Shown here: positions 15,637-62,547 of the stretch, in pieces
How the letters are laid out: each line of letters starts with the position of its first letter
Position numbering within the stretch: position 1 is the first letter of the stretch
Assembly: GCA_965216755.1 (NCBI GenBank)
Contig: CBDCGL010000011.1
Coordinates: 3,317,536-3,381,535 of the forward strand
DNA: 64,000 nt
Source: Alphaproteobacteria bacterium
GTDB lineage: Bacteria > Pseudomonadota > Alphaproteobacteria > UBA7887
Direction: 5' to 3'
Notes under the pieces: generated by a model
What the model saw: the letters and a program-made list of their open reading frames with translations, nothing else
The model's database searches: none
Told to the model about the DNA's origin: nothing
Made by a program: the position numbers and the translations under genes

Positions 15637-16137
15637 GTGAAGCGCTGGTTTGTGGTTCATACGCGCGCCCATGGCGAACAGCGCGCCTACGAAAACCTCT
15701 GCCGCCAAGGTTTCGACGCTTGGTTGCCGCGCTACCGCAAGAAGCGCCGCCACGCAGGTCGCCTGGAAACTGTTTTGCGACCTCTCTTCCCCAGATATCT
15801 GTTTGTGTCCGTGGATTTGGCGGCCGAACGTTGGCGCGCCATCCTATCGACCTTTGGGGTCGCCGGGTTGGTGGGCGCCGTAGATGGCCCAGAGCCGGTG
15901 CCCGACGGCGTTGTCAACGCCTTGCGTGCGCGCGCCGACGCCGATGGCTGTTTCACGTTGCATCGGGCGGCGACGATGAAACCGGGCCAGCCGGTGCGTA
16001 TCGGCGCCGGCCCCTTTCAAGACATCGAAGGGATTTTTCAAGCCCCTAGCGACGCCGAGCGGGTGGTTATTCTGCTGCAACTGATGGGGCGCACGGTTTC
16101 GATCACCGTGCCGGCATCGGATATCGACGCGCTCTGA
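15637..16137 (+). CDS. NusG-paralog transcription antiterminator, RfaH-like (NGN + KOW domains)
   Basis: 166 aa; MKRWFVVHTRAHGEQRAYENL (NGN domain, compare RfaH WYLLYCKRGQ), PLFPRYLFVSVD (RfaH PLFPNYLFVEFD), C-terminal KOW-like GQPVRIGAGPFQDIEGIF. Encoded inside the glycan island, and an exact ops element occurs at 23100-23111. Confidence 0.8.
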   Translation: MKRWFVVHTRAHGEQRAYENLCRQGFDAWLPRYRKKRRHAGRLETVLRPLFPRYLFVSVDLAAERWRAILSTFGVAGLVGAVDGPEPVPDGVVNALRARADADGCFTLHRAATMKPGQPVRIGAGPFQDIEGIFQAPSDAERVVILLQLMGRTVSITVPASDIDAL

Positions 16138-21904: not shown

Positions 21905-22843
21905 CTATTCCGTGGCGATCATGTCGCGATAGGTTTGGTCGAGCCGTTCAAATAGCTCGTCGCACATTTGTTGAATGCGTGGATCGCGTGCCGCGAACGG
22001 GCTTTTGCGCACCGATGTGGCGAAGATCGACGACAGGAATCGTGGTGACAGCTTGCAACCGATCGCTTCAAAAATGCGCGCGAAACTGGTTTCTGGTTGG
22101 GCGACCAGATCCTCGTATTTGACCAGTAACACGCGCGGATTGCTGTCCAGCGCTTGGGCGAAATAGAACTGATTGCGCAAATACCAAAACACCGCCGCGG
22201 CGTCTTCGGCGGGCATATCGTCGGCATATAATTCCGAGACGCGCGCGATCAGCGCCGGTGTCAACCGTTCCGCGCGCCAGCCGAGCTTGGGCCACGCGCC
22301 GTCGCGGATCCATCGCAGAACGTCTTTTTGATGTTCGCCCCAATAGCGCACCGCCGAATTCGCCACATCGCCGTAATGGCGAAAAATCCAGATAGCGACG
22401 GCGCGCGAATCCAGTTCCAAGATCCGATCCGCCGCTTGGGAATTCATGATCGGCTTAAACGCGATGGTCGGCGCATGGCTGTGCGCGATCAGACCCTTAA
22501 TGGTGTCCGCATCGCGCAGCAGTCCGTATTTCAAGGCCGCGTTGGTGCCTTCCGGATAAACCCAAATCTCCGGCGATTGATCCAAGATCTCGCCCAGCAT
22601 TGTGGTGCCTGATCGTTGGCAACCCAGAATGAAGACGGGTGTTTTCGGTTGGTTGGCCCGATAGCGCAGGCGTTGCCACAGATATTTGCGCGCCAATTTC
22701 AGGCGCGTGGCGGCCGCGCGCCAAGCCCGCCCCATGGTCATCGGGTCAGGTTCCGGGCCCTGAATGCGCAAATCATAGTTGCCGAATTCAGATTGCGGGC
22801 GCGTCTCGTGTCTGTCGTCCGAATCCGAGACCTTGATGTTCAT
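21905..22843 (-). CDS. PAPS-dependent sulfotransferase
   Basis: 5'-PSB motif FILGCQRSGTTMLGEIL and downstream 3'-PB-like region. ATG at 22843. Divergent from the mega-operon promoter region. Confidence 0.7.
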   Translation of the reverse strand: MNIKVSDSDDRHETRPQSEFGNYDLRIQGPEPDPMTMGRAWRAAATRLKLARKYLWQRLRYRANQPKTPVFILGCQRSGTTMLGEILDQSPEIWVYPEGTNAALKYGLLRDADTIKGLIAHSHAPTIAFKPIMNSQAADRILELDSRAVAIWIFRHYGDVANSAVRYWGEHQKDVLRWIRDGAWPKLGWRAERLTPALIARVSELYADDMPAEDAAAVFWYLRNQFYFAQALDSNPRVLLVKYEDLVAQPETSFARIFEAIGCKLSPRFLSSIFATSVRKSPFAARDPRIQQMCDELFERLDQTYRDMIATE

Positions 22844-22988
22844 GGTCGGGACGTTTTTTGGGATCCGCTGTTTGGTGCGGCGAAGGGCGAAGTTGGTCCA
22901 GAATATAGAGGCCACACCGGTGAAGACAACGCCGCTTTGCGGGCGCCGAGTCGGACGCGCGCGAGCTTTTGTTTGAAGCTTGACCTGG

Positions 22989-23027
22989 CGTTCAAATTAT
23001 GAACACCTTTCGCGTTCATAATGTGAA
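22989..23027. promoter_or_regulatory. pair of 15-bp palindromic operator-like sites, GTTCAAATTATGAAC (22989-23003) and GTTCATAATGTGAAC (23013-23027); a -35-like TTGACC lies at 22979-22984
   Basis: Read directly. Both sites have perfect GTTCA/TGAAC outer half-sites with AT-rich 5-bp centres, centres 24 bp apart. Located in the divergent promoter region between the sulfotransferase (-) and the mega-operon (+), about 75-120 bp upstream of the ops element. Confidence 0.45.
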
Positions 23028-23099
23028 CGCATTGCCGCGCCCCGGCGCGGCAGGGTTTGCCTCAGACGCTCTAACCTGGTGAAGCCTTTCACCCGGAAT

Positions 23100-23111
23100 G
23101 GCGGTAGCGTG
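23100..23111 (+). promoter_or_regulatory. exact ops (operon polarity suppressor) element GGCGGTAGCGTG, the RfaH recruitment site, 21 nt upstream of the first ATG of the mega-operon
   Basis: Perfect 12/12 match to the canonical ops sequence on the coding strand of the leader. The first gene lacks a recognisable SD, as expected if RfaH couples the ribosome. An RfaH-like gene is present at 15637-16137. Chance expectation of an exact 12-mer in 2 x 64 kb is about 0.008. Confidence 0.75.
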
Positions 23112-23132: not shown

Positions 23133-24272
23133 ATGATACCCAGCTCGCAAACAACCTATGTTCGGCAAACGCCATTGCCGGCAACGGGTGCGCCGTGGCC
23201 GCGTCGCGCGGCGACCGACTTGTGGCGGCATTTCGTCCGGCGCCTCTATCGGAGCCCGCGTTTGGCGGTGACCGAGGCCGACGTGGTGCAGGCCGCGCGG
23301 CCGCGCGATGTCGGGGCGGAAAGCATCAATATTTGCAATGCCCGGTGCACGTTTTGCGGCTATGGCAAGGGGCCTGACGGCAAGGCCGCGGACGCGCGGC
23401 GCAAGGGCAAGTTATCCGCGGACGTGTTTCGTCACACTTTGCGGCTTTACTCTGCCGCGGGCGGCGGTGTCTTCGCCCTGTCGCCGATCTTGGGTGAAGT
23501 GTCGGCGGACCCGCGCTGGCTCGACATGGTGCGCGAGGCGCGCAGCTTCGACAACATCACCGGTGTCAGCTGTTTCACCAATGCCATCCTCCTGCATCGC
23601 TTCGGCGCCGATGCCATCGTCACCGCGGGCATCACCCATATGGCGTTGTCAACCTCGCTTGGCTCGGCGGAACAGTACCGGCGGCTCTATGGGGTCGACA
23701 AATATGATCAGGTGGTGGCCAACATTCTGGACCTGTTGCGTGCCAACCAGCGCCATGGCGCGCCGGTCGATATCAGCATTCATTTGCGCATCGACAAGCC
23801 GTTTTCGAGATTCTTTCGCTCGGACATTTATGCCGAACTGCTGAAATATGTGCCGGCGTCGCGTATTCAAATCTTGGATGATGGCTGGGACGATTTCAAA
23901 GGCCTGATTGGTTCGGACGGCCTGCCCGGTGGTCAACAGTTCAAGGTTCAATATCCAGACAAATCTGTGCCGTGCTATGCGATTTATAGAAAGTTGCAGG
24001 TGCTGAAGGACGGCACGATCCAAGGCTGTTCGTGCCGGATCGAACCCGATCTGTGGGTCGGCAACATCATGGACTTTGACAGCATGGAAGCGGCGTGGCG
24101 CAACCCGGCCTTTGAAGCGCTGCGGGCAAACTGGCATGCGGGCACGATCCCAAACAGCTGCAAGAATTGTAGCCATTACGAGCCCTACACCAATTTGCTG
24201 CGCGCGGCACGACCCGTCACCGTGGCACGGGCGATTGTCGGCAAGCTCAAACGCGTGCTGGGACGGGCCTGA
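23133..24272 (+). CDS. radical SAM protein with C-terminal SPASM-like Cys cluster
   Basis: CNARCTFC (Cx3Cx2C) radical-SAM motif followed by additional Cys motifs (CSCRIEPD ... CKNCSHY). About 379 aa from ATG 23133. Function in glycan modification unknown. Confidence 0.7.
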   Translation: MIPSSQTTYVRQTPLPATGAPWPRRAATDLWRHFVRRLYRSPRLAVTEADVVQAARPRDVGAESINICNARCTFCGYGKGPDGKAADARRKGKLSADVFRHTLRLYSAAGGGVFALSPILGEVSADPRWLDMVREARSFDNITGVSCFTNAILLHRFGADAIVTAGITHMALSTSLGSAEQYRRLYGVDKYDQVVANILDLLRANQRHGAPVDISIHLRIDKPFSRFFRSDIYAELLKYVPASRIQILDDGWDDFKGLIGSDGLPGGQQFKVQYPDKSVPCYAIYRKLQVLKDGTIQGCSCRIEPDLWVGNIMDFDSMEAAWRNPAFEALRANWHAGTIPNSCKNCSHYEPYTNLLRAARPVTVARAIVGKLKRVLGRA

Positions 24273-24899
24273 ATGGCGCGCGAACCGACCGCGCGCGACG
24301 GTCGCGAACAAGCGATTGTTCGCGAAGTTCTTGAACGGATCGACGAATCGCAAGAGATCAGTCAGCGGCAATTGGCCTCGGATTTGGGGATCGCCTTGGG
24401 CATGGCCAACGCCTATATCAAGCGCTGCATTCGCAAGGGCTGGATCAAGGTCAACGAGGCGCCGGCCCGCCGCTATCGCTATTACCTGACGCCAAAAGGG
24501 TTCGCCGAAAAAAGCCGACTGACGGCGCAATACTTTTCTGATTCCCTGCGTTTTTTCGGCCGCGCCCGGCAAAGTTACGATGCCTTGTTCGCGCAATTGG
24601 TGCGGCGCGGCGCGCGCCGCGTGGTGCTGTGCGGTGCCGATGAGCTGACTGAAATCGCGGCACTGTGCGCCCTGAAACACGATGTTAAGGTGGTCGGCGT
24701 GCTGCGCGGCGATGGGCGCGATGATCCGCTTGCCGGGCTACCGGCGATCGGCGAAGCATCTGCGGGCAATGTCGACTATTGGGTGATCGCCAGCTCCAGC
24801 GACGCCGCGCCGCTCTATACGCGAATTGGCGCCGCCAAAGGGCTTGATCATGTTGCCTATCCAGAGCTGTTGCGCCGGGTGGTGGGCGCGGCGCAATGA
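24273..24899 (+). CDS. winged-helix (MarR/ArsR-like wHTH) regulator with C-terminal Rossmann-like domain
   Basis: N-terminal wHTH (REVLERIDESQEISQRQLASDLGIALGMANAYIKRCIRKGWIKV). ATG overlaps the upstream stop (TGAATG region). Confidence 0.55.
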   Translation: MAREPTARDGREQAIVREVLERIDESQEISQRQLASDLGIALGMANAYIKRCIRKGWIKVNEAPARRYRYYLTPKGFAEKSRLTAQYFSDSLRFFGRARQSYDALFAQLVRRGARRVVLCGADELTEIAALCALKHDVKVVGVLRGDGRDDPLAGLPAIGEASAGNVDYWVIASSSDAAPLYTRIGAAKGLDHVAYPELLRRVVGAAQ

Positions 24900-26029
24900 G
24901 CGTGCCATCTGCGCGGCGGCCCTTGCACATGTTTGAACCCGATTTGGGTGATGCCGAAGAGCAGGCGGTCGTGGCGGTTTTGCGGTCTGGCTGGGTTGCC
25001 ATGGGGCCCAAGGTCGAGGCCTTTGAAGAACGATTTGCTGCGTTGACCGGGTCCGGCCACGCGGTTGCAGTGGGGTCGTGTACCGCCGCCCTACATTTGA
25101 CCAATCTGGCCCTGGACATCGGACCAGGCGACGACGTGATCGTGCCGTCGCTGACCTTCGCGGCGACCGCCAACGCCGTCCACATGACCGGCGCGACCCC
25201 GGTGTTCGCCGATGTTGTCGGGCCTGACGATTGGACGATCTCCGCCGATGACGTGGCGCGAAAATTGACCGACCGGACGCGGGCGGTCATCGCCATGCAT
25301 TATGCTGGCCACGCGGCTGACATGGATCGCCTGGCGGCGGTGTGCCAAAAGGCTGATGTCGACTTGATCGAAGACGCCTGCCACGGTCTGGGTGGGCAGC
25401 TTGGTGATCGCGCGCTCGGCGCCATCGGTCGAGCCGGATGTTTTAGTTTCTATAGTAATAAATTGATCACCACCGGCGAGGGCGGCATGGTGACCACCGA
25501 TGACCAAGCGCTGGCGGAACGGATCAAACGCTTGCGTTCGCACGGCATGACCGCGACGGCGATCGATCGCGTGCGCGGTGCCATGATCTATGACGTGACC
25601 GAACCTGGCCTCAACTATCGTCTGGATGACCTGCGCGCGGCCCTGGGCCTGGCACAGTTGGATCGGATCAATGACAAATTGGCCCGTCGGCACGAATTGG
25701 TCGCCCGATACGAGTCGCGCTTGGCGGTTATGGACGGCGTCGCAACGCCCGATTGCGGCCGGCGCGGTCGCTCGGCCCACTATCTGATGCCGGTGCGGCT
25801 GACGCAAGCCGATCGTGATGCGGTGCGTCGCCGATTGCAGGCCGATGGCATTCAAACGTCGGTGCATTACCGCCCGGTCCATCAATTTGCACACTATCGT
25901 GATCAGGCCACACCTTTGCCGCTGACCGAGGACATCGGCGCCAAGACTCTCAGTTTGCCACTCTATCCAAGCATGACTTTGGACCAAGTCGACCGCGTCT
26001 GTGACGCCCTGGCCGAGGCCGCGGGATAA
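24896..26029 (+). CDS. DegT/DnrJ/EryC1/StrS family PLP-dependent sugar aminotransferase (LegC/PglE-like)
   Basis: 377 aa; aspartate-aminotransferase fold type I sugar aminotransferase pattern with conserved Lys region (FSFYSNKLITTGEGG). Confidence 0.85.
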   Translation: MSVPSARRPLHMFEPDLGDAEEQAVVAVLRSGWVAMGPKVEAFEERFAALTGSGHAVAVGSCTAALHLTNLALDIGPGDDVIVPSLTFAATANAVHMTGATPVFADVVGPDDWTISADDVARKLTDRTRAVIAMHYAGHAADMDRLAAVCQKADVDLIEDACHGLGGQLGDRALGAIGRAGCFSFYSNKLITTGEGGMVTTDDQALAERIKRLRSHGMTATAIDRVRGAMIYDVTEPGLNYRLDDLRAALGLAQLDRINDKLARRHELVARYESRLAVMDGVATPDCGRRGRSAHYLMPVRLTQADRDAVRRRLQADGIQTSVHYRPVHQFAHYRDQATPLPLTEDIGAKTLSLPLYPSMTLDQVDRVCDALAEAAG

Positions 26030-26053
26030 ATCGTCGAGGCACCCGTAAATCGC

Positions 26054-26650
26054 GTGTTGGTATTTGGCTATAGCGTCGAAGCGATGGTCCTGTTGCGCGG
26101 CTTGGGTCATCATGTGGTTGCCGTCGCCGATCCGATACCGCGAGCGGCGCACGCGCGCCCGGCGGCCGATGACGCGCTTGTTTGGCATGACGATGACGAC
26201 GCCGCGCTGGCCGCGGGCGGCTTTGATCGGGTTGCCGTGATGATCGACGATCCGACGGCGCGCGCGCGGGTGCATGGCAGGCTTGCTGCCCGTGATTTGG
26301 CACCGCTGGACGTCGTCGCCGGCATCGTCGACGCGGGCGTTGACCACGGGCCCGGGTTGTGTGTGCAACGCTTGGCCAATGTTTCGGCCGGCACAAGCTT
26401 TGGCGCCGGCGGCCGGCTCAATATCGGCGCGAATGTCATGCATGATTGCCGGATCGGTGATTTCGTCACCGTCGCCCCGGGGGCCGTTGTGCTGGGCCAT
26501 GTGACGATCGGCGCACAAAGCTATATCGGTGCCAATGCAACCATATTGCCGACGCGCACAATCGGTGACGGTTGCGTGGTCGGTGCCGGCGCGGTGGTCA
26601 CCCGTGACGTGCCCGACGGCGCCGTTGTCAAAGGCAACCCGGCGCAATGA
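26054..26650 (+). CDS. left-handed beta-helix sugar N-acetyltransferase (PglD/NeuD/LegH-like)
   Basis: 198 aa; N-terminal Rossmann-like half plus hexapeptide repeats (IGANATILPTRTIGDGCVVGAGAVV). Confidence 0.8.
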   Translation: MLVFGYSVEAMVLLRGLGHHVVAVADPIPRAAHARPAADDALVWHDDDDAALAAGGFDRVAVMIDDPTARARVHGRLAARDLAPLDVVAGIVDAGVDHGPGLCVQRLANVSAGTSFGAGGRLNIGANVMHDCRIGDFVTVAPGAVVLGHVTIGAQSYIGANATILPTRTIGDGCVVGAGAVVTRDVPDGAVVKGNPAQ

Positions 26651-27639
26651 CGCACCTGATCCAGGCGTGCGACGTTTTGTTTGTCGTCGATGCGTCGGCG
26701 GATGTTGGGTTCGGCCACGCCGCGCGGTGCTTGCACCTGGCAGATCTGGTGCGGCAGCGCCGGCCGCGCGCAGGTATCGCGTTTCAGGGGTCATTCACCG
26801 ATGCGGCGCAGGTGCGCATCGCCAGGGCCAAGATTGACATTGTCGCGACAGACCATCGCGTTAACGCGCCGATTTGTTTCGTCGATCGATTGGCCACGCC
26901 GGACAACGCGGACATTTGTGATCCGGCGCAAATTCGTGACCTGCAACAACGCTGTGGCCGGGTGGTCTACATGGCGTCTGGTGTCCGGGCACCAGAGCTT
27001 CCTGACGGCGTGATCTGTATCGGTTATCAACCAGGCGGGCCACCTGAGCGGCCGCCGTGGCTTTTGTGGGGGTGGCGCTTTGCGCCAGTGCCCGAGGGGT
27101 TTTCGCGGTTGGCTGAAACCCCGCCTGAGCACGGGTCGGTGCTGATCGCGCTCGGCGGTGGCGCGGACGCGGCCACGCTGCGCCGCGTTGTCGACGCTGT
27201 GCGCGCGACGGACCAGGCTGCAAAGATCGATATTCTGGGGTCGCCGGTATGGCGGAGCGATCTTGTGGACGCGATCGGCGCAGACCGGATTTTGTGGCAC
27301 AAAGATGTGCCCGACGTGCGCCCCTTGTTGGCGGGCGCAGCGTTGGTCGTTGCCAGCCAGGGCAACTTTGCCTATGAAGCGATGGCCGCCGCGCGACCGT
27401 TGGTAATTCTGGGGCTCAAGGCATTTCAAGCCAATATCGGGCATCGTCTGGCTGAGGCCGGCCTTGCGGTCTATGGCGGCACCGGTACGGCACAAGACAG
27501 TGCGCGTTTGGCGTCGGCGTTGGCGCGGGGTCGTGCAGACGCGGCGGCGTTGCGCGCGACCATGCGCGAGACGATTGATGATCGGGGCTTTGTGCGCATC
27601 GCCGATCAACTTCTGGAAGATCGTAGGGTGACCGTGTGA
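26647..27639 (+). CDS. PseG-like UDP-sugar hydrolase (GT28/MurG-like C-terminal domain)
   Basis: 330 aa; N-terminal VDASADVGFGHAARCLHLA (GxGHxxR-type motif of PseG-family nucleotidases), GT-B like. Confidence 0.6.
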   Translation: MTHLIQACDVLFVVDASADVGFGHAARCLHLADLVRQRRPRAGIAFQGSFTDAAQVRIARAKIDIVATDHRVNAPICFVDRLATPDNADICDPAQIRDLQQRCGRVVYMASGVRAPELPDGVICIGYQPGGPPERPPWLLWGWRFAPVPEGFSRLAETPPEHGSVLIALGGGADAATLRRVVDAVRATDQAAKIDILGSPVWRSDLVDAIGADRILWHKDVPDVRPLLAGAALVVASQGNFAYEAMAAARPLVILGLKAFQANIGHRLAEAGLAVYGGTGTAQDSARLASALARGRADAAALRATMRETIDDRGFVRIADQLLEDRRVTV

Positions 27640-28340
27640 CGGCGTCGGTGGTCGCGGTTATTCAGGCGCGCATGGGATCGAAACGATTACCTGGCAAAGT
27701 GCTGGCGCCGCTGGCTGGCGCGCCTCTGCTGCAGCACTTGGTCGCGCGGGTGCGGCGTTCCCGGCGCCTTGACGACGTGGTTGTCGCGACCAGCGATCAG
27801 GCCGCGGACGATGCCATCACCGCGCTGTGCGCGACACTTGGCGTCGCGTGTTTTCGCGGCAGTGAATGGGATGTCTTGGATCGGGTGTTGGCGGCGGCGG
27901 GCAACGCCGAGATCGTTGTGCGGTTGACGGCCGACAATCCGTTCGTTGATGGCGCCTTGATTGATTATGTGTTGGCCGCGGCGCTGCCGACCATGCCGCC
28001 GGCGGTCTATGCCAGCAATATTGCGTGCGGCGACTTCCCGGTGGGACTCTATGTGGAGGTCGCCGCCAAAGCGGCGTTGCTGGTGGCCGCTGAGAGTAGC
28101 GATCCCGCCGATCGTGAACATGTCACCTGGTATTTGCGCCGCCAACCTGAACGATTTCCGGCGACCGATGTTGGCGCGCCAGGCCGGTTTCCCGATATGC
28201 CGCTGACCATCGACACGGCGGCGGATCTCACAAGGGTCGGCGGGTTGTTCGCCGCGTTCCATGGCCGCGATCCGAACTTCAATTATCGCGATCTTATGGC
28301 CCTGGCCATACCCAAACAGGAAAGGCAAGCGGCGCCATGA
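27636..28340 (+). CDS. acylneuraminate (nonulosonate) cytidylyltransferase (PseF/LegF/SpsF family)
   Basis: VIQARMGSKRLPGKVL N-terminal CMP-transferase motif; 234 aa. Confidence 0.85.
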   Translation: MTASVVAVIQARMGSKRLPGKVLAPLAGAPLLQHLVARVRRSRRLDDVVVATSDQAADDAITALCATLGVACFRGSEWDVLDRVLAAAGNAEIVVRLTADNPFVDGALIDYVLAAALPTMPPAVYASNIACGDFPVGLYVEVAAKAALLVAAESSDPADREHVTWYLRRQPERFPATDVGAPGRFPDMPLTIDTAADLTRVGGLFAAFHGRDPNFNYRDLMALAIPKQERQAAP

Positions 28341-29344
28341 CCGATGCGCTGATGATTAGCCAAACAAAGATTGGTGACGGTGCGCCACCCTATTTGATCG
28401 CCGAAATCGGCATCAATCACGGTGGCGACGTTGGTTTGGCGGCGCGCATGATCAAAGAGGCGCGGGCTGCTGGCGCCCAGGCCGCCAAGTTGCAAGCGTT
28501 CCGCACCGCTGCTTTGGTGGCGCGCACCAGCCCCTATTTTCAGGTGCTTGACGATGCCGCGCTCAGCAAATCGGCGTTGGCGCAACTGGTGGGAGTCGCG
28601 CGCGACGCGGGCGTTGCCATGTTCGCCTCTGTCTTCGATGAAGACAGTGCAGACACCATGGCGGATCTGGATGCGCCGGCGTTCAAGATCGCGTCCGGCG
28701 ACATCAACCATTTGCCCCTGTTGCGCCATGTCGCGGCGTTCGGACGGCCAATGATCATCTCGACCGGCGGCGCGACCATGGGTGATATCGAACGCGCGCT
28801 GTCGGCCGTGTCCCAAGGCGGCGCTGCGCCCGTGGCGTTGCTGCATTGTGTGTCGCACTATCCGACTCCGGCGGCGCAAGCCAATTTGGCTTGCTTGCCG
28901 ACCATCAAGGCGCAGTTCGGTGTCCCGGTTGGCTTTTCCGATCACACAATGGGCGAAGCGGTGGCCCTGGCGGCCGCCGCGTTGGGCGCCGACATCATCG
29001 AGAAACACTTCACCTTCGATCGCGACGCGCCGGGCCCGGACCATGCCTTGTCGTCGGATCCGGCCGGTTTGACGCGCTTGGCTGAAGGGCTGCAGACGGT
29101 TTGGCAAGCGGTCGGCCACAGTCAAAAAATGCCGGTCGAGACCACAGATCACGTCACTCAAATTCGCCGCTGTGTCACGGCGGACGTGGCCATCCCGGCA
29201 GGCACCGAGGTTCGCGCCGACATGCTGGCGGTGAAACGGCCGGGCACGGGTCTCGCGCCGGACGCCCGCGACCTGGTGGTCGGCCGCCGCGCGCGCCAAG
29301 ACATCCCGGCCGAAACCGCCATCGACTGGTCTATGATCGATTGA
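28337..29344 (+). CDS. NeuB-family nonulosonic acid synthase (N-acetylneuraminate / legionaminate / pseudaminate synthase), copy 1
   Basis: YLIAEIGINHGGDVGLAARMIKEARAAGAQAAKLQAF TIM-barrel NeuB signature and C-terminal SAF/antifreeze-like domain. Confidence 0.88.
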   Translation: MTDALMISQTKIGDGAPPYLIAEIGINHGGDVGLAARMIKEARAAGAQAAKLQAFRTAALVARTSPYFQVLDDAALSKSALAQLVGVARDAGVAMFASVFDEDSADTMADLDAPAFKIASGDINHLPLLRHVAAFGRPMIISTGGATMGDIERALSAVSQGGAAPVALLHCVSHYPTPAAQANLACLPTIKAQFGVPVGFSDHTMGEAVALAAAALGADIIEKHFTFDRDAPGPDHALSSDPAGLTRLAEGLQTVWQAVGHSQKMPVETTDHVTQIRRCVTADVAIPAGTEVRADMLAVKRPGTGLAPDARDLVVGRRARQDIPAETAIDWSMID

Positions 29345-29973
29345 TGACGACGGCGGCGGTCAGTGTCGTTGATTACGGAATTGGCAATATCGGCTCGGTG
29401 GTCAACGCGTGTCGGCGTGTTGGCGCCGCGGCGGCCGTGGCCGAAACTGGTGCGGACCTTCGCGGCCAAGCGCCGGCGGCAATCGTGCTGCCTGGCGTCG
29501 GCGCGATCAAATCAGCGCTCCAGGCGTTGCGCGCACGCGGTTTCGAATCGGCCCTGCAGCATCTTGTCCGCGAAAATGGCACACCCTTTCTGGGTATTTG
29601 TGTGGGTATGCAGATCCTGGCAGAACGTTGTCATGAGTTTGGCGTGCATCAGGGTTTCGGCTGGATCGCCGGCCAGGTCGAACGGATCGTGCCACCGTCG
29701 GACAATGTACGCGTGCCGCATGTCGGTTGGAACGACGTGGCGGTGAGGGGGGCTGATCCGGTGCTTGATGGTCTCGACGGTGCCCACTTCTATTTCGTCC
29801 ACTCTTGCGCGTTGCGTTGCAATGGGTCGGTTACCACGGCGAGCGCGGACTATGGCGGCCCGTTTGCGGCGGCGGTGCGCGACGGGGTCGTACGCGGGGT
29901 CCAGTTTCATCCGGAGAAAAGTTCGGGCGCCGGCGAACAATTGCTGGCACAGTTTTTTGCGACCTGTCATTGA
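29344..29973 (+). CDS. HisH-like class-I glutamine amidotransferase (WbuY paralog of imidazole glycerol phosphate synthase)
   Basis: VVDYGIGNIGSV ... LPGVGA ... GICVGMQ (catalytic Cys) ... HVGWN ... QFHPEKS. Real start ATG 29344 (1-nt overlap with the NeuB stop); the ORF-track start at 29101 is a shadow extension. Confidence 0.85.
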   Translation: MTTAAVSVVDYGIGNIGSVVNACRRVGAAAAVAETGADLRGQAPAAIVLPGVGAIKSALQALRARGFESALQHLVRENGTPFLGICVGMQILAERCHEFGVHQGFGWIAGQVERIVPPSDNVRVPHVGWNDVAVRGADPVLDGLDGAHFYFVHSCALRCNGSVTTASADYGGPFAAAVRDGVVRGVQFHPEKSSGAGEQLLAQFFATCH

Positions 29974-29979
29974 GAACCT

Positions 29980-30771
29980 ATGCTCAAACGACGATTGATT
30001 CCGGTGTTGCTTTTGCAGCATGGTTGGATGGTGCGCAGCGAACTGTTTCGAACCCATCAGGTGATCGGCAATCCCGTGGTGCATGTCGAACGGATGGTGC
30101 AATGGGATGTCGACGAACTGATCGTGTTGGATATCAGCGCTGGCGCCGCCACGGATTTCGGTCACAATCGCGACGACTATCGCGAACCGGGGGCGACCGA
30201 CTTGCTGGCGTTCATTCGCAAGATCGCCGCCGAATGTCGTATTCCGCTGACCTTTGGCGGTCGTATTCGGTCGCTTGACGATATGGGCCTGCGGATCCAG
30301 AACGGTGCGGACAAGGTCACCCTGAATACCGCGGCGCTCGACGACCCGGAATTAATCCGTCGGGGCGCGGAAACCTTCGGCGCCCAGGCCGTGGTGGTGA
30401 GTATCGATTATCGCCACGGCTCTGACGGCGCCGTCGTCTTTCGCGACAATGGTCGGGTCAATACCGGGCGTGCGCTCGCCGATTGGGCGCGGTCGGCCGA
30501 AGACCATGGTGCCGGCGAAATCCTGGTTAACGCCATTGACCGAGATGGGGTTGCGAACGGTTATGATTTGGAAACCATTGCCGCGATCGCAGACACAGTC
30601 CGCATTCCGGTGATCGCCTGTGGCGGTGCTGGCCATATGCGCCACTTTGCCAAATGCTTTGAAAGCACCGATGCGAGCGCGGTTGCCGCAGCCAACATTT
30701 TCCATTTTACGGAAAACGCCTATCCGCGCGCGAAAAGATATTTGCGAGGCGAACGTGACGATATCCGCTGA
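29980..30771 (+). CDS. HisF-like cyclase subunit (WbuZ paralog)
   Basis: 263 aa (beta/alpha)8 HisF/HisA family pattern (RLIPVLLLQHGWMV ... IPLTFGGRIRS ... ACGGAG). Confidence 0.85.
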   Translation: MLKRRLIPVLLLQHGWMVRSELFRTHQVIGNPVVHVERMVQWDVDELIVLDISAGAATDFGHNRDDYREPGATDLLAFIRKIAAECRIPLTFGGRIRSLDDMGLRIQNGADKVTLNTAALDDPELIRRGAETFGAQAVVVSIDYRHGSDGAVVFRDNGRVNTGRALADWARSAEDHGAGEILVNAIDRDGVANGYDLETIAAIADTVRIPVIACGGAGHMRHFAKCFESTDASAVAAANIFHFTENAYPRAKRYLRGERDDIR

Positions 30772-31930
30772 AGTAAGGGCGTCGACGGGAATAGCGGACT
30801 TGCCGCCCCTTCGCTGGTGTACGCGCTGCGTCTATCCATCCAGTTCGGCGGTTGCGCTGGTGTTTGACGATAATGGCGTGTGCAGCGGCTGCCGGGTCCA
30901 CGACCAGAAAAAGACCATCGACTGGGATGAACGGCTGGCGTGGCTTTTGGAAGAGATCGAACCCTATCGGCGCCCGTCGGGTTATGAATGTGTGATCGGC
31001 GTCTCCGGCGGCAAGGACAGCTACTATCAGGTGCATTTCGTCAAGGAAAAGCTCGGTCTCAATCCGTTGCTCGTTACATATAACGGCAACAATTATTTGG
31101 ATATCGGCTGGCAAAACCTGATGCGGATGAAGGCCGTTTTCGGCGTCGATCACATGATCATATCGCCTTCGGAAGAACTATTAATTCGCATGAATCGCTT
31201 AGCGTTTCGCATGATGGGCGACATGAATTGGCAAAACCATGCCGGAATCGCCACGGTGCCCATGCAGATGGCCGTGCGCATGGGCATTCCCCTGGTGTTT
31301 TGGGGCGAACATGGTTGGACCGATCTGGGCGGCATGCATTCGATGCATGATCTGGTCGAATATACCGCGCGCTATCGAAAGGATCAGCTGCTGCGTGGTT
31401 ACGATTGGCACGACATGATGGGCGATGAAGAGGACCCGATCGCCGCGCACGAACTCGAGTGTTTCAAATATCCGCGCGATGCCGAAATCGAGTCGGTCGG
31501 CCTGCGCGGGATATTCATTGGCAATTACGATCCCTGGGACGCCAATGCCCACGCCCAATTGGTGATGGAACGCTATGGGTGGCTACCATCGCCGGTGCCG
31601 TTTGAACGCACCTATCGGCGCATGTCGAATTTGGACGACCGCTATGAAAACGGTGCCCACGACTATTTGAAGTATATCAAGTTCGGTTATGGCCGGGCGA
31701 CCGATCACGCCTGCAAAGACATCCGCAGCGGCTATATGAGTCGCGACGAAGGCATCGCCATGGTGAAACGGTACGATCATGTGCGGTCGTCGGATTTGAC
31801 CTATTGGCTCGACTATGTCGATCGCGGCGAACAATGGTTTGACCAAATCGCCGACGGGTTTCGTAGCCCGAAGGTGTGGCGGCGGGACAGCGCCGGGCAG
31901 TGGCACAAACGAAATTTGTGGGACCAATGA
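30755..31930 (+). CDS. N-acetyl sugar amidotransferase (WbuX/PseA-like, PP-loop ATP pyrophosphatase)
   Basis: CTRCVYPSS...GVCSGC zinc-ribbon, SGGKDS PP-loop. Start assigned to GTG 30755, preceded by GAGG SD; alternative TTG 30800. Confidence 0.8.
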   Translation: MTISAEVRASTGIADLPPLRWCTRCVYPSSSAVALVFDDNGVCSGCRVHDQKKTIDWDERLAWLLEEIEPYRRPSGYECVIGVSGGKDSYYQVHFVKEKLGLNPLLVTYNGNNYLDIGWQNLMRMKAVFGVDHMIISPSEELLIRMNRLAFRMMGDMNWQNHAGIATVPMQMAVRMGIPLVFWGEHGWTDLGGMHSMHDLVEYTARYRKDQLLRGYDWHDMMGDEEDPIAAHELECFKYPRDAEIESVGLRGIFIGNYDPWDANAHAQLVMERYGWLPSPVPFERTYRRMSNLDDRYENGAHDYLKYIKFGYGRATDHACKDIRSGYMSRDEGIAMVKRYDHVRSSDLTYWLDYVDRGEQWFDQIADGFRSPKVWRRDSAGQWHKRNLWDQ

Positions 31931-32949
31931 CGGTCGCCGCCGACCGCCCGGGTTTTTCAGTCGATGATATCCGCCCCGCCGCGGTCATGGCCGATCAGCA
32001 GGCGGCCATGCAGCACGATATTGATTGGCTGGCGCAGCATCGCAACCAATTCGAAGCCGTGTCATGCCCGGCCTGTGGGCAAGCGGATGCGGTGGCGCTC
32101 TACGAAAAATATGGCATGCATCATGTGCGTTGCGGCGCATGTGTGACCCAATATGTATCGCCGCGGCCCAGCCAACCCCTGTTGGCGCGCTTTTATGCGC
32201 AGTCCGCGAACTATGCCTATTGGGCGCAGCATATCTTTCCGGCCAGCGCGGACGCCCGGCGCGTAAACCTGTTCCGCCCGCGCGCGCGGCACGCCGCGGC
32301 GCTAATGCGAGCGGCGAACGTCGATGGTGGCACATTGGTCGAAGTTGGCGCGGCATTCGGCTTGTTTTGCGACGAAGCGCGCGCGACCGGCGCCTTCGAT
32401 CGGGTGGTGGCGATTGAGCCGACACCGGACTTGGCTGCGATCTGCCGCGACCTGGGCCTGGAAACCCACCAATGCCCCTATGAAAAGGTGACCATCGACC
32501 ACGGCGCGCACATGGTTGCGGCGTTCGAAGTGATCGAGCACCTGCATACACCTGTCGATTTTCTACATTGGTGCCACGGGATATTGCGCCCCGGCGGGCT
32601 GGTGATGCTGACCTGTCCGAACAGTCGCGGTTTGGAAACCTTGGCGCTCGGCAAGGCCGCCGGCGCCGTCGACCATGAGCACCTCAATCTGTTCCATCCG
32701 GACTCATTGCGCGCCTTGGCGGCGCGCTGCGGCTTTGTTGATGTCGCCATCACGACCCCGGGCGAACTCGACGTGGAGTTGGTGGCGGCTGCGCTTGATG
32801 ACGGTGCTATCGACGAAAAAGCGTTGGGGCCGTTCATTGGCGCAGTCATGGCGGATCGCGACCCGATTGTGTTGGCCAAGCTGCAGGCGTTCGTTCGCGA
32901 CGCCGGCTACTCGTCGCACATGATGATGGTGGCGCGGCGCGTGCCATGA
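31927..32949 (+). CDS. class-I SAM-dependent methyltransferase with N-terminal Cys4 zinc ribbon
   Basis: CPACG...CGAC ribbon, then methyltransferase fold (LVEVGAAFG ... AFEVIEHL). ATG 31927 overlaps the upstream stop (ATGA). Confidence 0.7.
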   Translation: MTVAADRPGFSVDDIRPAAVMADQQAAMQHDIDWLAQHRNQFEAVSCPACGQADAVALYEKYGMHHVRCGACVTQYVSPRPSQPLLARFYAQSANYAYWAQHIFPASADARRVNLFRPRARHAAALMRAANVDGGTLVEVGAAFGLFCDEARATGAFDRVVAIEPTPDLAAICRDLGLETHQCPYEKVTIDHGAHMVAAFEVIEHLHTPVDFLHWCHGILRPGGLVMLTCPNSRGLETLALGKAAGAVDHEHLNLFHPDSLRALAARCGFVDVAITTPGELDVELVAAALDDGAIDEKALGPFIGAVMADRDPIVLAKLQAFVRDAGYSSHMMMVARRVP

Positions 32950-34148
32950 TCGCGGTTTTTCTGGGTAACAAGCTGGTCAGTTGCGACACGGTGCTGCCGA
33001 TCATGATGACGGTCAAGCGCCGCCATCCGGGCGAAGCTATCAATATCTATTGCATCGGCCGGGCGACATTCGATGTTATCCACCGCAATCAAGTGTTGTG
33101 GGATGGTATTCACAAGATTGGACGCCTCTACAATCTGGGCCGCGTGGGCCACGGCCGCGGGTCGTGGCTCGTGCACCGCGCCAAAGCATTTGCGTTTTTG
33201 TTGCGTTTGTCTTGGTTGGGGCTGATCGGCCGCGCGACATTTGTTCATTTCGGCCGCTTGAATGCCTGGCCGTTTCGCCTACTGTTTTTCAGCAATCCTC
33301 GCAACACGGTCTTGATGCAGCAGGTCTCCGCCGGGCACGGACCACTGGAAGCGGGGATCGATGCCTTGAAGCGTGCGCGCCGCGATCGCACGTCCGACCA
33401 AGCGGCGGGAAGACTGATGGGGTTTGGGCCAAACTGGCCAGCATTCGCGCAAGCCGGGGTGCCGCAAAGTCGTTGCCACGTCTTGGGCGTGCCCCACTTG
33501 GCGCCGGCGTGGCGCGACTATATCGATGGACGCGCGGCGCGGGATTTCGACGGCGCCGGCCATGGCGAGAGCGCCGAGATTTTGGCCTTCATGCTGGGTT
33601 TTTTTGGACCGCTCGATTTCTTACCGAGCGCAGACACCGTGCAACAACTGTTCGAGGAATCCCTGGATATATTGGTTGCCGCCGGGGGCGGCCGGCCGGT
33701 GTTTATCAAGCCCCATGCCATTACCGACTTGAAGATTGTCGACACCGCGCTGAAGGCACGCGCCGGTGCGCCGTTGGTGGTCAGCCATTTGCATCCCAAC
33801 GTGCTCGCGACGCGGGCGCGGCTGTGCATCGCGAATTATTACAGCGCGACACTGTATACAATGCGTGCCTTGGGTGTGCCGACGATCGAATACACGGATT
33901 ATACCGAACAGGCTTTGGTCGCGACCGATGACGGCTCGATGCGTCCGGACGCCGTGAGCCACTTTGTCCAACGGGACCGTGCGGGGCTCGATCGTCTTGT
34001 TCGCGACCTCGTGCAACGGCCGCGCAACCATATCGCGCCACGTGACTTGGACCCAAGCGCCATCGACGCATTGGCGCGTCGCCCTTATCCTCGTGGGACG
34101 GGTTCCGTTCGTGGCGCCGACCTTGAACACATGGTGACCAAGCCATGA
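32946..34148 (+). CDS. uncharacterised 400-aa protein; candidate Capsule_synth (KpsC/KpsS)-like ulosonic-acid transferase
   Basis: No confident family hit by eye. C-terminal half carries PVFIKPHAITD ... NYYSATLYTMRALGVPTIEY, a pattern also seen in 46097..47677 and 49780..51672 and reminiscent of the KpsS/KpsC HP and NST...GkPv motifs. Confidence 0.35.
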   Translation: MIAVFLGNKLVSCDTVLPIMMTVKRRHPGEAINIYCIGRATFDVIHRNQVLWDGIHKIGRLYNLGRVGHGRGSWLVHRAKAFAFLLRLSWLGLIGRATFVHFGRLNAWPFRLLFFSNPRNTVLMQQVSAGHGPLEAGIDALKRARRDRTSDQAAGRLMGFGPNWPAFAQAGVPQSRCHVLGVPHLAPAWRDYIDGRAARDFDGAGHGESAEILAFMLGFFGPLDFLPSADTVQQLFEESLDILVAAGGGRPVFIKPHAITDLKIVDTALKARAGAPLVVSHLHPNVLATRARLCIANYYSATLYTMRALGVPTIEYTDYTEQALVATDDGSMRPDAVSHFVQRDRAGLDRLVRDLVQRPRNHIAPRDLDPSAIDALARRPYPRGTGSVRGADLEHMVTKP

Positions 34149-35212
34149 GCGTACAAAGGATCGATCGATTCGAAACCATGGTGTGCCCGCCGAACATGTC
34201 GTTGCGGGGCGTCATGGGCCGGATGACTGCAACCGGGCATTTATTCCAGGTCGTGTTGGATGGCGGGGGGCGGGTTCTGGGCACGGTGACCGACGGCGAT
34301 CTGCGCCGGGCGATTCTCAACGGTGTCGGCGTCGAATCGGATATCGCGGTGTGCATGCAAAAGAATGCCGTAATCGGCAAGCTGGGCGCCCAGGATCACA
34401 ATCGACGGCTGCTAGAAAATCTTCAACAAATCAGTCCGAACGCGGCGTTGTTGCCGGTCACCGACGACGATGGTGTCCTCAATGAGATTCTTTTGTTGGC
34501 CGGCGATGTGGTCGAGGCCCCGGCGGCGCTGGTGATGGCGGGCGGCATGGGCCGCAGACTTGGCGCGCGCACGCGCAATACACCAAAACCGCTGTTGCCA
34601 GTTGGTGGCAAAGCGATTTTGGAACACATTCTTGGCCGCCTGGAGACCGCGTCGATAACCCGCATTCTGATTTCGGTGCACTATCTGGCGGAACAAATCG
34701 AAGCATTTGTCACCGCACGGAGCAATACGGCGCATGTCGATTTGGTCCGTGAAGAGCAACCGTTGGGGACGGCGGGCGCGATTGGGGAAATCGACGATGT
34801 GCCGGGCGGTGGCCTGATGGTCTTGAACGGCGATGTGCTGACACAAGTCGATTTCGACGCTCTGATCAGTTTTCATCGGCGCAGCGGCCACGACGCCACC
34901 CTTGCCGTTGCGCAGTATGAAGTGGCCGTGCCTTATGGCGTGGTCAAGCACAGCGATGACGGCTTGTTCCAGGGGATCGAGGAAAAACCGCGCATGCGCC
35001 AATTTGTCGCCGCGGGGATCTATTTGTTGTCACGCGAATTTTGTGCTTTGCCGCAAGCCGGCCAGCGTATCGACATGCCGGAATTGATCAATATGGGGCG
35101 GAGCATAGGTCTTAAAGTCGGCTTGTTTCCGATCCACGAATATTGGAAGGATGTCGGACAGGTCGCCGATTTGGAATCGGCAGAACGCGACCACAATGGT
35201 GGGCCGGCTTAA
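34145..35212 (+). CDS. CBS-domain sugar-1-phosphate nucleotidyltransferase (PtmE-like; GlcNAc-1-P guanylyltransferase-type)
   Basis: N-terminal CBS pair region followed by nucleotidyltransferase domain (LVMAGGMGRRLG ... KPLLPVGGKAILEH). The architecture matches the PtmE enzyme of the GDP-dependent legionaminic acid pathway. Confidence 0.7.
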   Translation: MSVQRIDRFETMVCPPNMSLRGVMGRMTATGHLFQVVLDGGGRVLGTVTDGDLRRAILNGVGVESDIAVCMQKNAVIGKLGAQDHNRRLLENLQQISPNAALLPVTDDDGVLNEILLLAGDVVEAPAALVMAGGMGRRLGARTRNTPKPLLPVGGKAILEHILGRLETASITRILISVHYLAEQIEAFVTARSNTAHVDLVREEQPLGTAGAIGEIDDVPGGGLMVLNGDVLTQVDFDALISFHRRSGHDATLAVAQYEVAVPYGVVKHSDDGLFQGIEEKPRMRQFVAAGIYLLSREFCALPQAGQRIDMPELINMGRSIGLKVGLFPIHEYWKDVGQVADLESAERDHNGGPA

Positions 35213-36368
35213 GGTGGAGCGGCGCTACGATATCCCTTTGAGCGTGCCGGATTTGCGCGGCCGCGAACGCGAGTATCTGACTCGTTGTGTCGACGAGAAT
35301 TGGGTGTCGACCGCCGGGCCATTCGTCGATCAGGTCGAAGATGGTTTGGCGGCCATAAGTGACCAAGACCACGCCGTGGCGACTTGTACGGGGACCGCGG
35401 CGCTGCATTTGGCGTTATTGGCGGTGGGGGTCAAGGCCGGCGACCTGGTCATCGTGCCGGATTGGACATTCGGGGCAACAGCGAACGCGGTGTATCATGC
35501 CGGGGCGACGCCGCTTTTGGTCGATGTGCAATCAACCTGTTGGACCTTGGATCCGGCGCGGGTCGAAGATGTGCTCAACACGCGCGCAGTGGCGGCGGTC
35601 ATCGCCGTTGACGCGCTCGGGCATCCGGCTGACATGGACGCGCTTGGCGCCGTGTGCCGCGACCACAATGTGCCGTTGATTGAAGATGCCGCTGGTGCCA
35701 TTGGCGCGCGCTACAAGGGGCGCCCGGCCGGCGGCTTGGCCGATGTCGGCATCTATTCGTTCAACGGCAACAAGACCATTACCGCGGGTGGCGGCGGCGC
35801 GGCGGTGACCAATCGCGACGACTATGCAACGCTTATGGCTCAACTGGCGGTGCATCGGGTCAGCGACGCCAGCCGTGCGCCCGGCGGGTTCTATCGCTAT
35901 GACGTGATCGGCTTCAACTATCGCATGACCAATATCAGCGCCGCGCTGGCGTTGGCGCAATTGGAGCGGTTGGATCAGATGTTGGCGCGCAAAAGGGCGA
36001 TTGCAGCCTGTTACGACCAGGGCCTGGCCGGACGCGACGACCTGCGGCCCATGCCGCGGGCGGCGTGGGCGGACCCGAACTGCTGGATGTATTCGGTCAT
36101 GTGCGGGTCGGCGGATGATGCGGACCGCCTGGTCCGCCATTTGGAACAGCAGCGCGTGCAGGCACGGATATTTTGGCAGGCCCTGTCCTCACAAACGGCG
36201 TACGATTCGGCGCCGCGCGACATTGGCGGGGTGGCACAAGCGATCGGTGCCCGAACGGTCGCCTTGCCATGCAGCAGCAATCTTACCGAAGATCAACAGC
36301 ACTATGTGCTCGGGTTGCTCCGCGAATGGCAGGGCAACCCGGTGGCGGAGCTGGCGCAGGCTTCATGA
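35196..36368 (+). CDS. DegT-family PLP-dependent sugar aminotransferase (LegC-like)
   Basis: IPLSVPDLRGREREYLTRCVDENWVS N-terminal DegT signature, FNGNKTITAGGGG Lys region. Start ATG 35196 (alternative GTG 35214). Confidence 0.85.
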   Translation: MVGRLKVERRYDIPLSVPDLRGREREYLTRCVDENWVSTAGPFVDQVEDGLAAISDQDHAVATCTGTAALHLALLAVGVKAGDLVIVPDWTFGATANAVYHAGATPLLVDVQSTCWTLDPARVEDVLNTRAVAAVIAVDALGHPADMDALGAVCRDHNVPLIEDAAGAIGARYKGRPAGGLADVGIYSFNGNKTITAGGGGAAVTNRDDYATLMAQLAVHRVSDASRAPGGFYRYDVIGFNYRMTNISAALALAQLERLDQMLARKRAIAACYDQGLAGRDDLRPMPRAAWADPNCWMYSVMCGSADDADRLVRHLEQQRVQARIFWQALSSQTAYDSAPRDIGGVAQAIGARTVALPCSSNLTEDQQHYVLGLLREWQGNPVAELAQAS

Positions 36369-37387
36369 CGTCGACGCCGCCAACGGTGATCGCCGAAGCC
36401 GGAGTCAATCACAATGGCGATTTGGCACGCGCCCGCGAAATGGTGGCCGCGGTCGCCGCGACTGGGGCCGACATTGTTAAGTTCCAGGCCTTCCAGGCTG
36501 ATCGCCTGGTCACCAAGACCGCCGCAACCGCTGCCTATCAACACTCCAACACCGGCTTGCGCAACCAGGTCGATATGTTGCAAGCCTTGGAATTGACTCT
36601 GTATGACTTCGCCGTCTTGGCGGATGATTGCCGTAACAACAAAATTGAATTTCTGTGCACGCCATTCGATATCGATTCTCTGAACGGCCTGATGGCGATT
36701 GGCATGGCGCGTGTCAAGGTGGCATCGGGCGAACTGACCAATTTGCCATTGTTGCGCGCGATTGGCGGCTACGGCGTGCCAGTGATCCTGTCCACCGGCA
36801 TGGCGAATGTGGATGAGGTCGCGGTGGCGCTGGCTGCCTTGCGCGACAACGGCGCCGGCCCGGTGACTTTGTTGCATTGCACGTCGCAATATCCGGCGCC
36901 GATAGACTCGCTCAATTTGCGCGCGATCGTCAGCCTGCGTGACCGGTTTGGCGTTTCGGTTGGCTATTCCGATCATAGTGTGGGGAACATGGCGGCGATC
37001 GCGGCGGTCGCGCTCGGCGCGACAGTGATCGAGAAGCACTTTACTTTGGATCGGTCGTTGCCGGGCCCGGATCACGCGGCATCGCTGTTGCCGAATGAAG
37101 TCGCTGACTTGGTAGCGGCCGTGCGTGACGCGGCGCGTGCATTGGGCAACGGCCGTAAACAACCGACAGCCGCGGAACTGGAAACCGCGCGCTTGGTGCG
37201 ACAAAGCTGGCATGCCGCGCGCAATTTGGCGAGAGGACACGTGATTGGCGATGGCGATGCGGTGCTAAAAAGACCAGACACCGGCTTAGCGCCGGCTATG
37301 TCGCCGGTCGGGCGCAGTTTGCGCGTTGATGTGATGGCAGACATGCCCCTGCGGGCCGACGATTTGGTCGAGGACGTGCGCCCATGA
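36365..37387 (+). CDS. NeuB-family nonulosonic acid synthase, copy 2 (LegI-like)
   Basis: VIAEAGVNHNGDLARAREMV ... KFQAF NeuB signature. ATG 36365 overlaps the upstream stop (ATGA); the upstream 64 codons of the ORF-track entry are a shadow extension. Confidence 0.88.
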   Translation: MTSTPPTVIAEAGVNHNGDLARAREMVAAVAATGADIVKFQAFQADRLVTKTAATAAYQHSNTGLRNQVDMLQALELTLYDFAVLADDCRNNKIEFLCTPFDIDSLNGLMAIGMARVKVASGELTNLPLLRAIGGYGVPVILSTGMANVDEVAVALAALRDNGAGPVTLLHCTSQYPAPIDSLNLRAIVSLRDRFGVSVGYSDHSVGNMAAIAAVALGATVIEKHFTLDRSLPGPDHAASLLPNEVADLVAAVRDAARALGNGRKQPTAAELETARLVRQSWHAARNLARGHVIGDGDAVLKRPDTGLAPAMSPVGRSLRVDVMADMPLRADDLVEDVRP

Positions 37388-41292: not shown

Positions 41293-41314
41293 CGGCCGGC
41301 CTGTTAGGAAATCC

Positions 41315-46078: not shown

Positions 46079-46096
46079 CCGCATGGAGCCTTAGGC

Positions 46097-47677: not shown

Positions 47678-47712
47678 CGTTAGTCCCCGATGCGATCCCT
47701 GGAGCATAAACT

Positions 47713-49766: not shown

Positions 49767-49779
49767 TCTCGTCATCGCC

Positions 49780-52702: not shown

Positions 52703-52713
52703 CCGTGCGCGTG

Positions 52714-53739: not shown

Positions 53740-53768
53740 CCCACACTGTTGGCATCGTTCAAGCTCGC

Positions 53769-56904: not shown

Positions 56905-56953
56905 ACCTTTGCATGTTGCGCTGCCGCAAATCCTCTGGGCAATTTGGTCGGGA

Positions 56954-56965
56954 CCGAGTAGGGTG
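56954..56965 (+). promoter_or_regulatory. ops-like element (CCGAGTAGGGTG) in the 117-bp leader upstream of the FabH-like gene
   Basis: Shares GTAGGGTG with 21110-21117 and the GTAG..TG core with the exact ops at 23100. Confidence 0.3.
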
Positions 56966-57021
56966 CGCGGCTGTCCGATGACTTATTTGTCTAGTCAGAG
57001 CCGTCGAAGAGGATTGTCAGC

Positions 57022-57942: not shown

Positions 57943-57966
57943 GCGCGATCCGTCAATCAACCTGAA

Positions 57967-62546: not shown

Positions 62547-62547
62547 A

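Follow-up and report, generated by a model that had tools for sequence, protein, structure and literature searches.

The window examined here, a stretch of 64,000 nucleotides (64 kb) of alphaproteobacterial DNA, carries a long array of nonulosonic-acid and polysaccharide genes on its plus strand. The first gene of this operon (23133..24272, +) encodes a radical SAM/SPASM protein, as deduced from the ORF list and a domain search. The position of its start codon is not certain: the longest ORF, from GTG 23079, would take in the ops element described below, and for this reason the in-frame ATG at 23133 is the more plausible start; no obvious Shine-Dalgarno sequence precedes either codon. The second gene (24273..24899, +) encodes a winged helix-turn-helix (wHTH) protein of 208 aa, hereafter the regulator, which was recognized by its Pfam HTH_24 domain (9.6e-9), by family alignment, by an AlphaFold2 model, and by its co-occurrence with the DNA motif that is the subject of this study.

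The rest of the co-directional array, ~40 kb behind the operator (24896..63693, +), was assigned by domain searches and codes for three NeuB-type synthases, three cytidylyltransferases, DegT aminotransferases, two HisH/HisF-like pairs, NeuC- and PseB-like enzymes, glycosyltransferases, an ABC exporter, and a sulfotransferase, the second of the window. The synthases, cytidylyltransferases, and HisH/HisF-like pairs are found together in this one array, at 27636-29344, 36173-37387, 42298-43269, and 51665-55760, and their numbers imply that several nonulosonic-acid pathways are probably encoded. The other sulfotransferase gene is divergent (21905..22915, −; Sulfotransfer_3, 8.6e-16), and is followed to the left by a GT8-like gene, an epimerase gene, cysD, cysNC, and cysQ. 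Because two sulfotransferases are accompanied by cysD/cysNC/cysQ, these genes point to a sulfated glycan as the likely product. Farther to the left, a DUF218 gene (14860-15621) precedes a gene for an RfaH-like NusG paralogue (15637..16137, +; Pfam NusG, 2.7e-20; 67% identity to the paralogue of L081, one of the closest relatives of the locus). The best NCBIfam match of this protein is TIGR01955 RfaH, at 121 bits with a cutoff of 144.5, and it is the presumed reader of the ops element.

Two palindromic sites lie between the divergent genes, in a segment (22979-23030) that reads cTTGACCtggcGTTCAaattaTGAACacctttcgcGTTCAtaatgTGAACgc. The core of site 1, GTTCAAATTATGAAC, occupies 22990-23004 with AATTA at its center, and the core of site 2, GTTCATAATGTGAAC, occupies 23014-23028 with TAATG at its center; neither palindrome is assigned to a strand. 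In both, the half-sites GTTCA and TGAAC are perfect, and the two centers are 24 bp apart, so that the earlier note, which had described two such 15-bp sites at this spacing, agrees with the DNA in coordinates and in sequence. The flanks are also as it had described them, with the minus-strand sulfotransferase gene on one side and the ops element and operon on the other, according to both the sequence and the domain match. The two sites match an extended 17-bp consensus, Y-GTTCA-N5-TGAAC-R, in the forms CGTTCAAATTATGAACA (site 1, 22989..23005) and CGTTCATAATGTGAACG (site 2, 23013..23029), which were located by sequence and motif scan and score 24.4 and 24.7 bits, respectively, with a position matrix built from the relatives of the locus.

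No other stretch of the 64-kb window matches GTTCA-N5-TGAAC, even if one mismatch is allowed, and the matrix scan found no weaker sites elsewhere in the window, the next best score being 4.3 bits. The number of exact matches expected per window is 0.07, and two matches were reached in 1 of 100 shuffles; two exact sites 24 bp apart are therefore far beyond chance, at an inferred probability of roughly 1e-5. By eye, no third, degenerate site could be recognized upstream of the hexamer TTGACC, where a lone TGAAG at 22974-22978 is found without a left half.

TTGACC (22980..22985, +) is the putative −35-like hexamer of a rightward promoter, on the grounds of its sequence and of the cTTGAyy-N2-6 that precedes the equivalent site in the closest relatives, in which the counterpart of site 1 is the site located 3′ of the −35. 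The sites had been thought to overlap this hexamer, but they do not, as site 1 begins 4 nt after it. If TTGACC is the −35 element, site 1 would extend from about −25 to −11 and site 2 from about −1 to +14, and the predicted transcription start falls at about site 2. The canonical promoter, with TTGAC abutting the site and TA behind it, is absent from the window and no good −10 is visible in it at 16-18 nt 3′ of TTGACC, so the overlap of the sites with a promoter in the window itself is a putative one.

The leader that follows, CACCCGGAAT-GGCGGTAGCGTG (23090..23111, +), consists of the ops 12-mer with a conserved 5′ extension that is kept in relatives, and lies 72 nt after site 2. The 12-mer is exact (GGCGGTAGCGTG, 23100-23111) and provides the ops element, GGCGGTAGnnTG, of RfaH/ops antitermination. 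The 5′ extension, CACCCGGAAy, recurs with hardly a changed letter in alphaproteobacterial relatives whose proteins are 50-60% identical, and a variant of the extended leader, GTGCGGTAGCCGTGG, occurs in Rhodobacterales plasmids. Scans of the region for Rfam families, tRNAs, and terminators gave no match.

The association of the motif with the regulator was examined in both directions. From the protein side, 80 loci were fetched solely by homology to the in-operon wHTH protein, by means of an alignment of 29 homologues; they represent different species-level genomes, nearly all Alphaproteobacteria, at 40-57% identity to the regulator. The motif, with at most one mismatch, is present within 300 bp upstream of the regulator gene in 78 of these 80 loci, gene starts in the relatives being approximate. 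One of the two exceptions has only 43 nt of upstream DNA; in the other (L004), two genes separate the regulator from sites that are 1.8 kb upstream. These intervening genes (4309-5970) encode a CBS-nucleotidyltransferase and a DUF5943/V4R protein, and they make L004 the second case, after the window, in which genes have come to lie between operator and regulator.

The 870 kb of the 80 loci hold 128 exact sites, where 0.39 are expected from composition, and the density is 4.9 per kb upstream of the regulator against 0.014 per kb elsewhere. The earlier note had looked to enrichment of the motif upstream of related operons in relatives, and this enrichment is what the 80 loci display. The spacing and orientation are specific, since the everted arrangement, direct repeats, and N3, N4, N6, or N7 spacings give 0-3 matches in the same 870 kb. 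Fourteen loci have a single site, 52 have two, 11 have three, and 1 has four; in the 64 loci with two to four copies these are 21-34 bp apart, with a start-to-start peak at 23 bp (range 21-28) and a second group at 32-34 bp. The consensus in the relatives is Y-GTTCA-N5-TGAAC-R, in which the central 5 bp are free. The AT-rich centers, which had been described as a property of the sites, are thus real in the window (AATTA and TAATG) but are not conserved in relatives and are peculiar to this locus. Secondary sites in the relatives precede PseB/DegT genes (with ops), NeuB, glycosyltransferase, and deacetylase genes, and genes for the NusG paralogue, a set that forms a coherent putative regulon.

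From the DNA side, a metagenome scan by DNA pattern alone, which asked for two sites 5-20 bp apart, yielded at least 120 matches, from which 80 loci were taken. Among the matches listed, a wHTH homologue lies immediately beside the sites in 59 of the 80 loci; ~20 of these homologues have the long, two-domain form, and ~38 are proteins of roughly 100 aa. All eight of the short proteins tested beside N5 tandem sites belong to TIGR04176 MarR_EPS, with 126-150 bits against a cutoff of 88. The 21 loci lacking a homologue include ~8 unrelated tandem repeats, several in which the contig ends 50-250 nt from the sites, and a few with the same promoter layout ahead of other genes. The repeat loci (L088, L091, L094, L110, L115, L123, L150, and L155) are false positives whose repeat units contain GTTCA-N5-TGAAC by chance, and they are mostly low-GC contigs. 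The operator/promoter layout of the relatives, described below, was also seen in L090, L112, and L132, marine contigs of 22-26% GC, and in L145, where TTTACA abuts GTTCA-N5-TGAAC-nn-TATATT and the latter abuts a further GTTCA. Because the same layout is found in such very AT-rich marine contigs, the operator/promoter cassette appears to extend to streamlined marine bacteria.

The sites of the relatives have a conserved register with respect to the promoter. The site follows TTGAC without a gap (TTGAC-GTTCA) in 51 of 78 relatives, and a T and an A located 5-6 nt past the end of the site are nearly invariant among them (46/51 and 47/51, respectively). The common layout consists of a −35 TTGACG, an operator that fills the 17-18-nt spacer, a −10 TAnnnT, and usually a second operator over the start region, with a third site upstream of the −35 in some relatives. 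Judged by its sequence, this is the geometry that a promoter-occluding repressor would have. The same layout stands ahead of a gmd/fcl/ABC-transporter/glycosyltransferase cluster in Chelatococcus plasmids, which come from cultured organisms.

The closest relatives (L081, L212, and L213; 59-61% identity to the regulator) and about a dozen others have a shifted layout, composed of a site, N6-8, cTTGAyy, N2-6, and another site, sometimes with a third site ~33 bp on, and followed after 50-130 nt by CACCCGGAAyGGCGGTAGCGTG and the regulator gene. In the nearest ones, the −35 and the site read TTGACG-N5-site, and the window, with TTGACC-N4-site 1, matches this arrangement, except that it is without the upstream site and has its second site just 24 bp downstream. 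The ops leader separates the operator from the wHTH gene in L081, L212, and L213 and in 14 of 78 other relatives, and in the three named loci the promoter diverges from cysD/cysNC/cysQ.

The half-site is shared more widely than the spacing. Rhodobacterales plasmids (L204 and L206-L210) carry a short MarR_EPS gene with a single palindrome whose half-sites are separated by N4 instead of N5 (e.g., CGTTCACGCGTGAACG). This palindrome, CGTTCA-N4-TGAACG, is located 80-118 bp upstream of the short regulator gene and is accompanied by the GTGCGGTAGCCGTGG leader. Because these short members use N4, the half-site would be a family-wide feature and the spacing a clade-dependent one.

Homologues of the regulator number more than 2,000, and even the nearest are below 62% identity. 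Its HTH_24 match defines a winged helix-turn-helix domain; the match to Pfam MarR (PF01047) is weak (E 4.4e-4; 20.5 bits, below the gathering score of 24.6), and that to TIGR04176 MarR_EPS, over residues 15-102, reaches 63.8 bits. Long-form relatives score 62-63 bits with the latter model, in comparison to the 126-150 bits of the short forms. In the AlphaFold2 model (pLDDT 83), a winged helix at residues 7-70, made of three helices and a conserved wing segment of low confidence (pLDDT below 50, residues 67-71), is followed by a long helix (74-111) and by a four-stranded alpha/beta domain (116-207) that is Rossmann-like and resembles only generic Rossmann/CoA-binding folds. The residues Q31, G43, N46, K55, G56, K59, Y70, L72, T73, P74, and G76 are invariant in long and short forms and are grouped in the turn, in the recognition helix, and in the wing, which fits the shared half-site, provided that these residues contact DNA as their positions suggest. 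As the regulator misses both the TIGR04176 cutoff and the length of that family, it belongs, on its sequence features, to a putative two-domain sister group of TIGR04176, and this two-domain form appears to read the same DNA half-site as the short form.

Taken with the promoter register, these associations make it probable that the two palindromes serve as operators for the winged-helix product of 24273-24899, which would repress its own synthesis and that of the operon. The earlier note had already seen in them the operator pair of a dimeric repressor, with the in-operon wHTH protein as the one to be footprinted on them; the link to that protein family holds in 78 of 80 and in 59 of 80 loci, and binding itself is a prediction from sequence. 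One dimer would occupy each 15-17-bp site and place one recognition helix on each GTTCA/TGAAC half-site, the half-site centers being 10 bp, or one helical turn, apart. Two dimers side by side over the core promoter would block RNA polymerase, and the regulator would thereby limit its own synthesis and the roughly 40-kb nonulosonic-acid/polysaccharide operon that starts with the ops leader. The RfaH-like paralogue (15637-16137), recruited at ops, would then take such transcripts as do start along the whole of the long operon, the ops/RfaH-like system thus acting downstream of initiation, and a release signal could act via the C-terminal Rossmann-like domain of the regulator. Several observations count against this explanation. 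The canonical promoter and a good −10 are absent from the window, as described above, the radical SAM gene between operator and regulator is found in the window alone and in none of the 80 relatives, and some relatives carry one more site on the upstream side of the −35, where activators bind as well.

The latter point belongs to an alternative in which the same wHTH protein binds the sites but activates, anti-silences, or acts both ways with partner proteins. The window promoter, having no convincing −10, might need such help, an upstream site is usual in the clade of the window, and there is a precedent in WggR of Sinorhizobium, which is an activator together with PhoB or ExpR and a repressor in other cases (PMC3233446, PMC10458429). 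This alternative is nevertheless unlikely, because 51 of 78 relatives have the operator in a spacer of the optimal 17-18 nt with a second site on the start region, and a spacer-filling operator blocks polymerase, unlike MerR-type activation, which operates on overlong spacers; moreover, the upstream site is absent from the window. Control of the leftward sulfotransferase gene by the same pair, which would add to the repressor explanation rather than replace it, is rather doubtful. The regulator promoter of the closest clade is always divergent from cysD/cysNC/cysQ, as would befit a sulfated glycan, and by heuristic orientation classes the upstream neighbor is divergent in ~37 of 62 classifiable relatives, but it is co-directional in ~25 by the same classes, and the conserved register concerns the rightward −35/−10 only. 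In the window, the sole leftward promoter-like match (22929-22902) is 61 bp from site 1 and overlaps neither site, and the possible starts of the sulfotransferase gene are 75-146 bp away. The proposal that the pair controls both directions was therefore not borne out.

Two other possibilities dispense with the regulator as the reader of the motif. A third party, such as an unlinked global regulator, might bind the motif and have the wHTH gene as just one of its targets, an arrangement that would also give co-localization; this is very improbable, given that the association is two-way, persists in relatives at 40-57% identity, and includes short and long forms whose sole common part is the wHTH domain. 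The alphaproteobacterial LexA (SOS) box is a direct repeat, GTTC-N7-GTTC, and as a candidate of this kind it was rejected, as the sites are inverted repeats and direct repeats number 0-1 against 128 palindromes in the 870 kb. The least credible of all is a role as nucleic-acid structure, in which a 15-bp hairpin or cruciform serves as terminator, attenuator, or processing site. Although the reverse complement of site 1 equals site 2 at 14 of 15 positions and the single strand has a folding energy of −14.7 kcal/mol (z = −4.0), the half-sites are conserved as sequence and not as mere complementarity, with no compensatory changes, and the centers of adjacent sites in relatives show no preference for inverted over direct similarity (1.91 versus 1.87 matches). 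In addition, the first site of most relatives lies within the promoter spacer, ahead of the transcription start, no T-run follows, and no Rfam family matches. The hairpin reading was rejected on the sequence-level conservation of the half-sites and the lack of an inverted preference in their centers.

An autoregulated winged-helix repressor on tandem palindromes is in itself a conventional, classical mechanism. Classical MarR-type repressors (MarR, OhrR) also combine a winged helix with palindromic operators whose half-sites are one helical turn apart, and their sites are often paired over their own −35/−10 for negative autoregulation. A palindromic operator upstream of the regulator's own gene, with half-sites ~10 bp apart, was found here in 78 of 80 relatives and was specific for N5. 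The regulator differs from these proteins in that its fold is shorter than the canonical MarR dimerization scaffold and has a Rossmann-like domain appended. TIGR04176 MarR_EPS is nearer: its wHTH is homologous, with the same helix-turn-helix and wing residues and a (C)GTTCA half-site, and it is found in polysaccharide/nonulosonic-acid loci beside RfaH-like genes, a surface-glycan setting that the window and its relatives share. However, the window protein stays below 88 bits, has 208 aa instead of the ~105 aa of a single-domain protein, and carries the additional C-terminal domain, whereas the short members on Rhodobacterales plasmids have a single N4 site.

Rex redox repressors likewise join a wHTH to a Rossmann domain, and their operator is TTGTGAA-N4-TTCACAA. 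The regulator resembles them in this domain order and in a half-site that contains TGAAC/GTTCA, but a Rex-like operator was rejected on orientation, sequence, and fold. Membership of the Rex family was rejected as well: the similarity is not significant, there being no PDB sequence match and a Foldseek E of 5e-3, and one glycine is conserved where Rex would have a GxGxxG loop. WggR (ExpG) of Sinorhizobium meliloti is a MarR-type regulator encoded in an exopolysaccharide cluster, and it binds palindromes that include one in its own promoter (PMC3233446). It resembles the present regulator in its place inside a polysaccharide cluster and in the palindromes of its promoters, and differs in acting mainly as a co-activator with PhoB or ExpR; homology was rejected, as none of the 21 plasmid matches at E ≤ 1e-3 comes from Sinorhizobium.

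The leader and the paralogue bring the locus close to the RfaH/ops (JUMPstart) system, as the window has an exact ops 12-mer in its leader and an RfaH-like paralogue nearby. Unlike E. coli rfaH, which stands alone, the paralogue of 53 of 80 relatives comes next after the regulator, behind the operator, beginning within a few nucleotides of the regulator stop codon, and in 19 relatives the two ORFs overlap by ~4 nt. The paralogue is upstream on the same strand in 12 other relatives (within ~5 kb) and in the window (~8 kb), and a NusG-family or RfaH gene is annotated near the short regulator in three Rhodobacterales plasmids. This direct succession of the two genes, in which the stop codon of one often overlaps the start codon of the other, suggests a conserved regulator-antiterminator module. 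UpxY/UpxZ of Bacteroides also pair a locus-linked regulator with a NusG paralogue (PMC11685472), but the partner proposed here would be a DNA-binding repressor at initiation and not an anti-antiterminator. Wang et al. 2020 remarked in passing that one RfaH cluster adjoins an HTH regulator (PMC7593976). Neither the motif nor any operator or function for MarR_EPS was found in the open-access literature that was searched.

A broader hypothesis, which is offered tentatively, is that the operator is part of a portable two-tier control cassette for surface-glycan loci. The repressor would act at GTTCA-N5-TGAAC and be co-transcribed with, or encoded near, an RfaH-like paralogue that acts on the same transcripts, namely ops-led operons of 10-40 kb, while the Rossmann-like domain would sense a pathway metabolite; the cassette would be found widely among Alphaproteobacteria and also outside them, marine contigs of very low GC being among its carriers. 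If this is true, the Rossmann-like domain of the long form would sense a nucleotide-sugar, PAPS, or CoA, thereby coupling precursor supply to expression. The motif would supply a precise and testable recognition sequence for a family known so far by a database name, TIGR04176 MarR_EPS, and for its unnamed two-domain sister, and in the capsule, O-antigen, and nonulosonic-acid loci of Alphaproteobacteria it would tie this family mechanically to RfaH-like antiterminators and to ops leaders. It allows regulon prediction across thousands of genomes and metagenome bins, and it makes the control of large, horizontally mobile glycan operons at both initiation and elongation directly testable.

One member of the short family occurs in a setting of another kind. 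On an Aliarcobacter butzleri plasmid (L205, 821-2453), an annotated MarR_EPS gene is immediately followed by tet(H), a tetracycline efflux gene, which is a context unexpected for the family, and one imperfect site, GTTCAAAGTTTAAAC, lies 57 bp upstream of the MarR_EPS gene.
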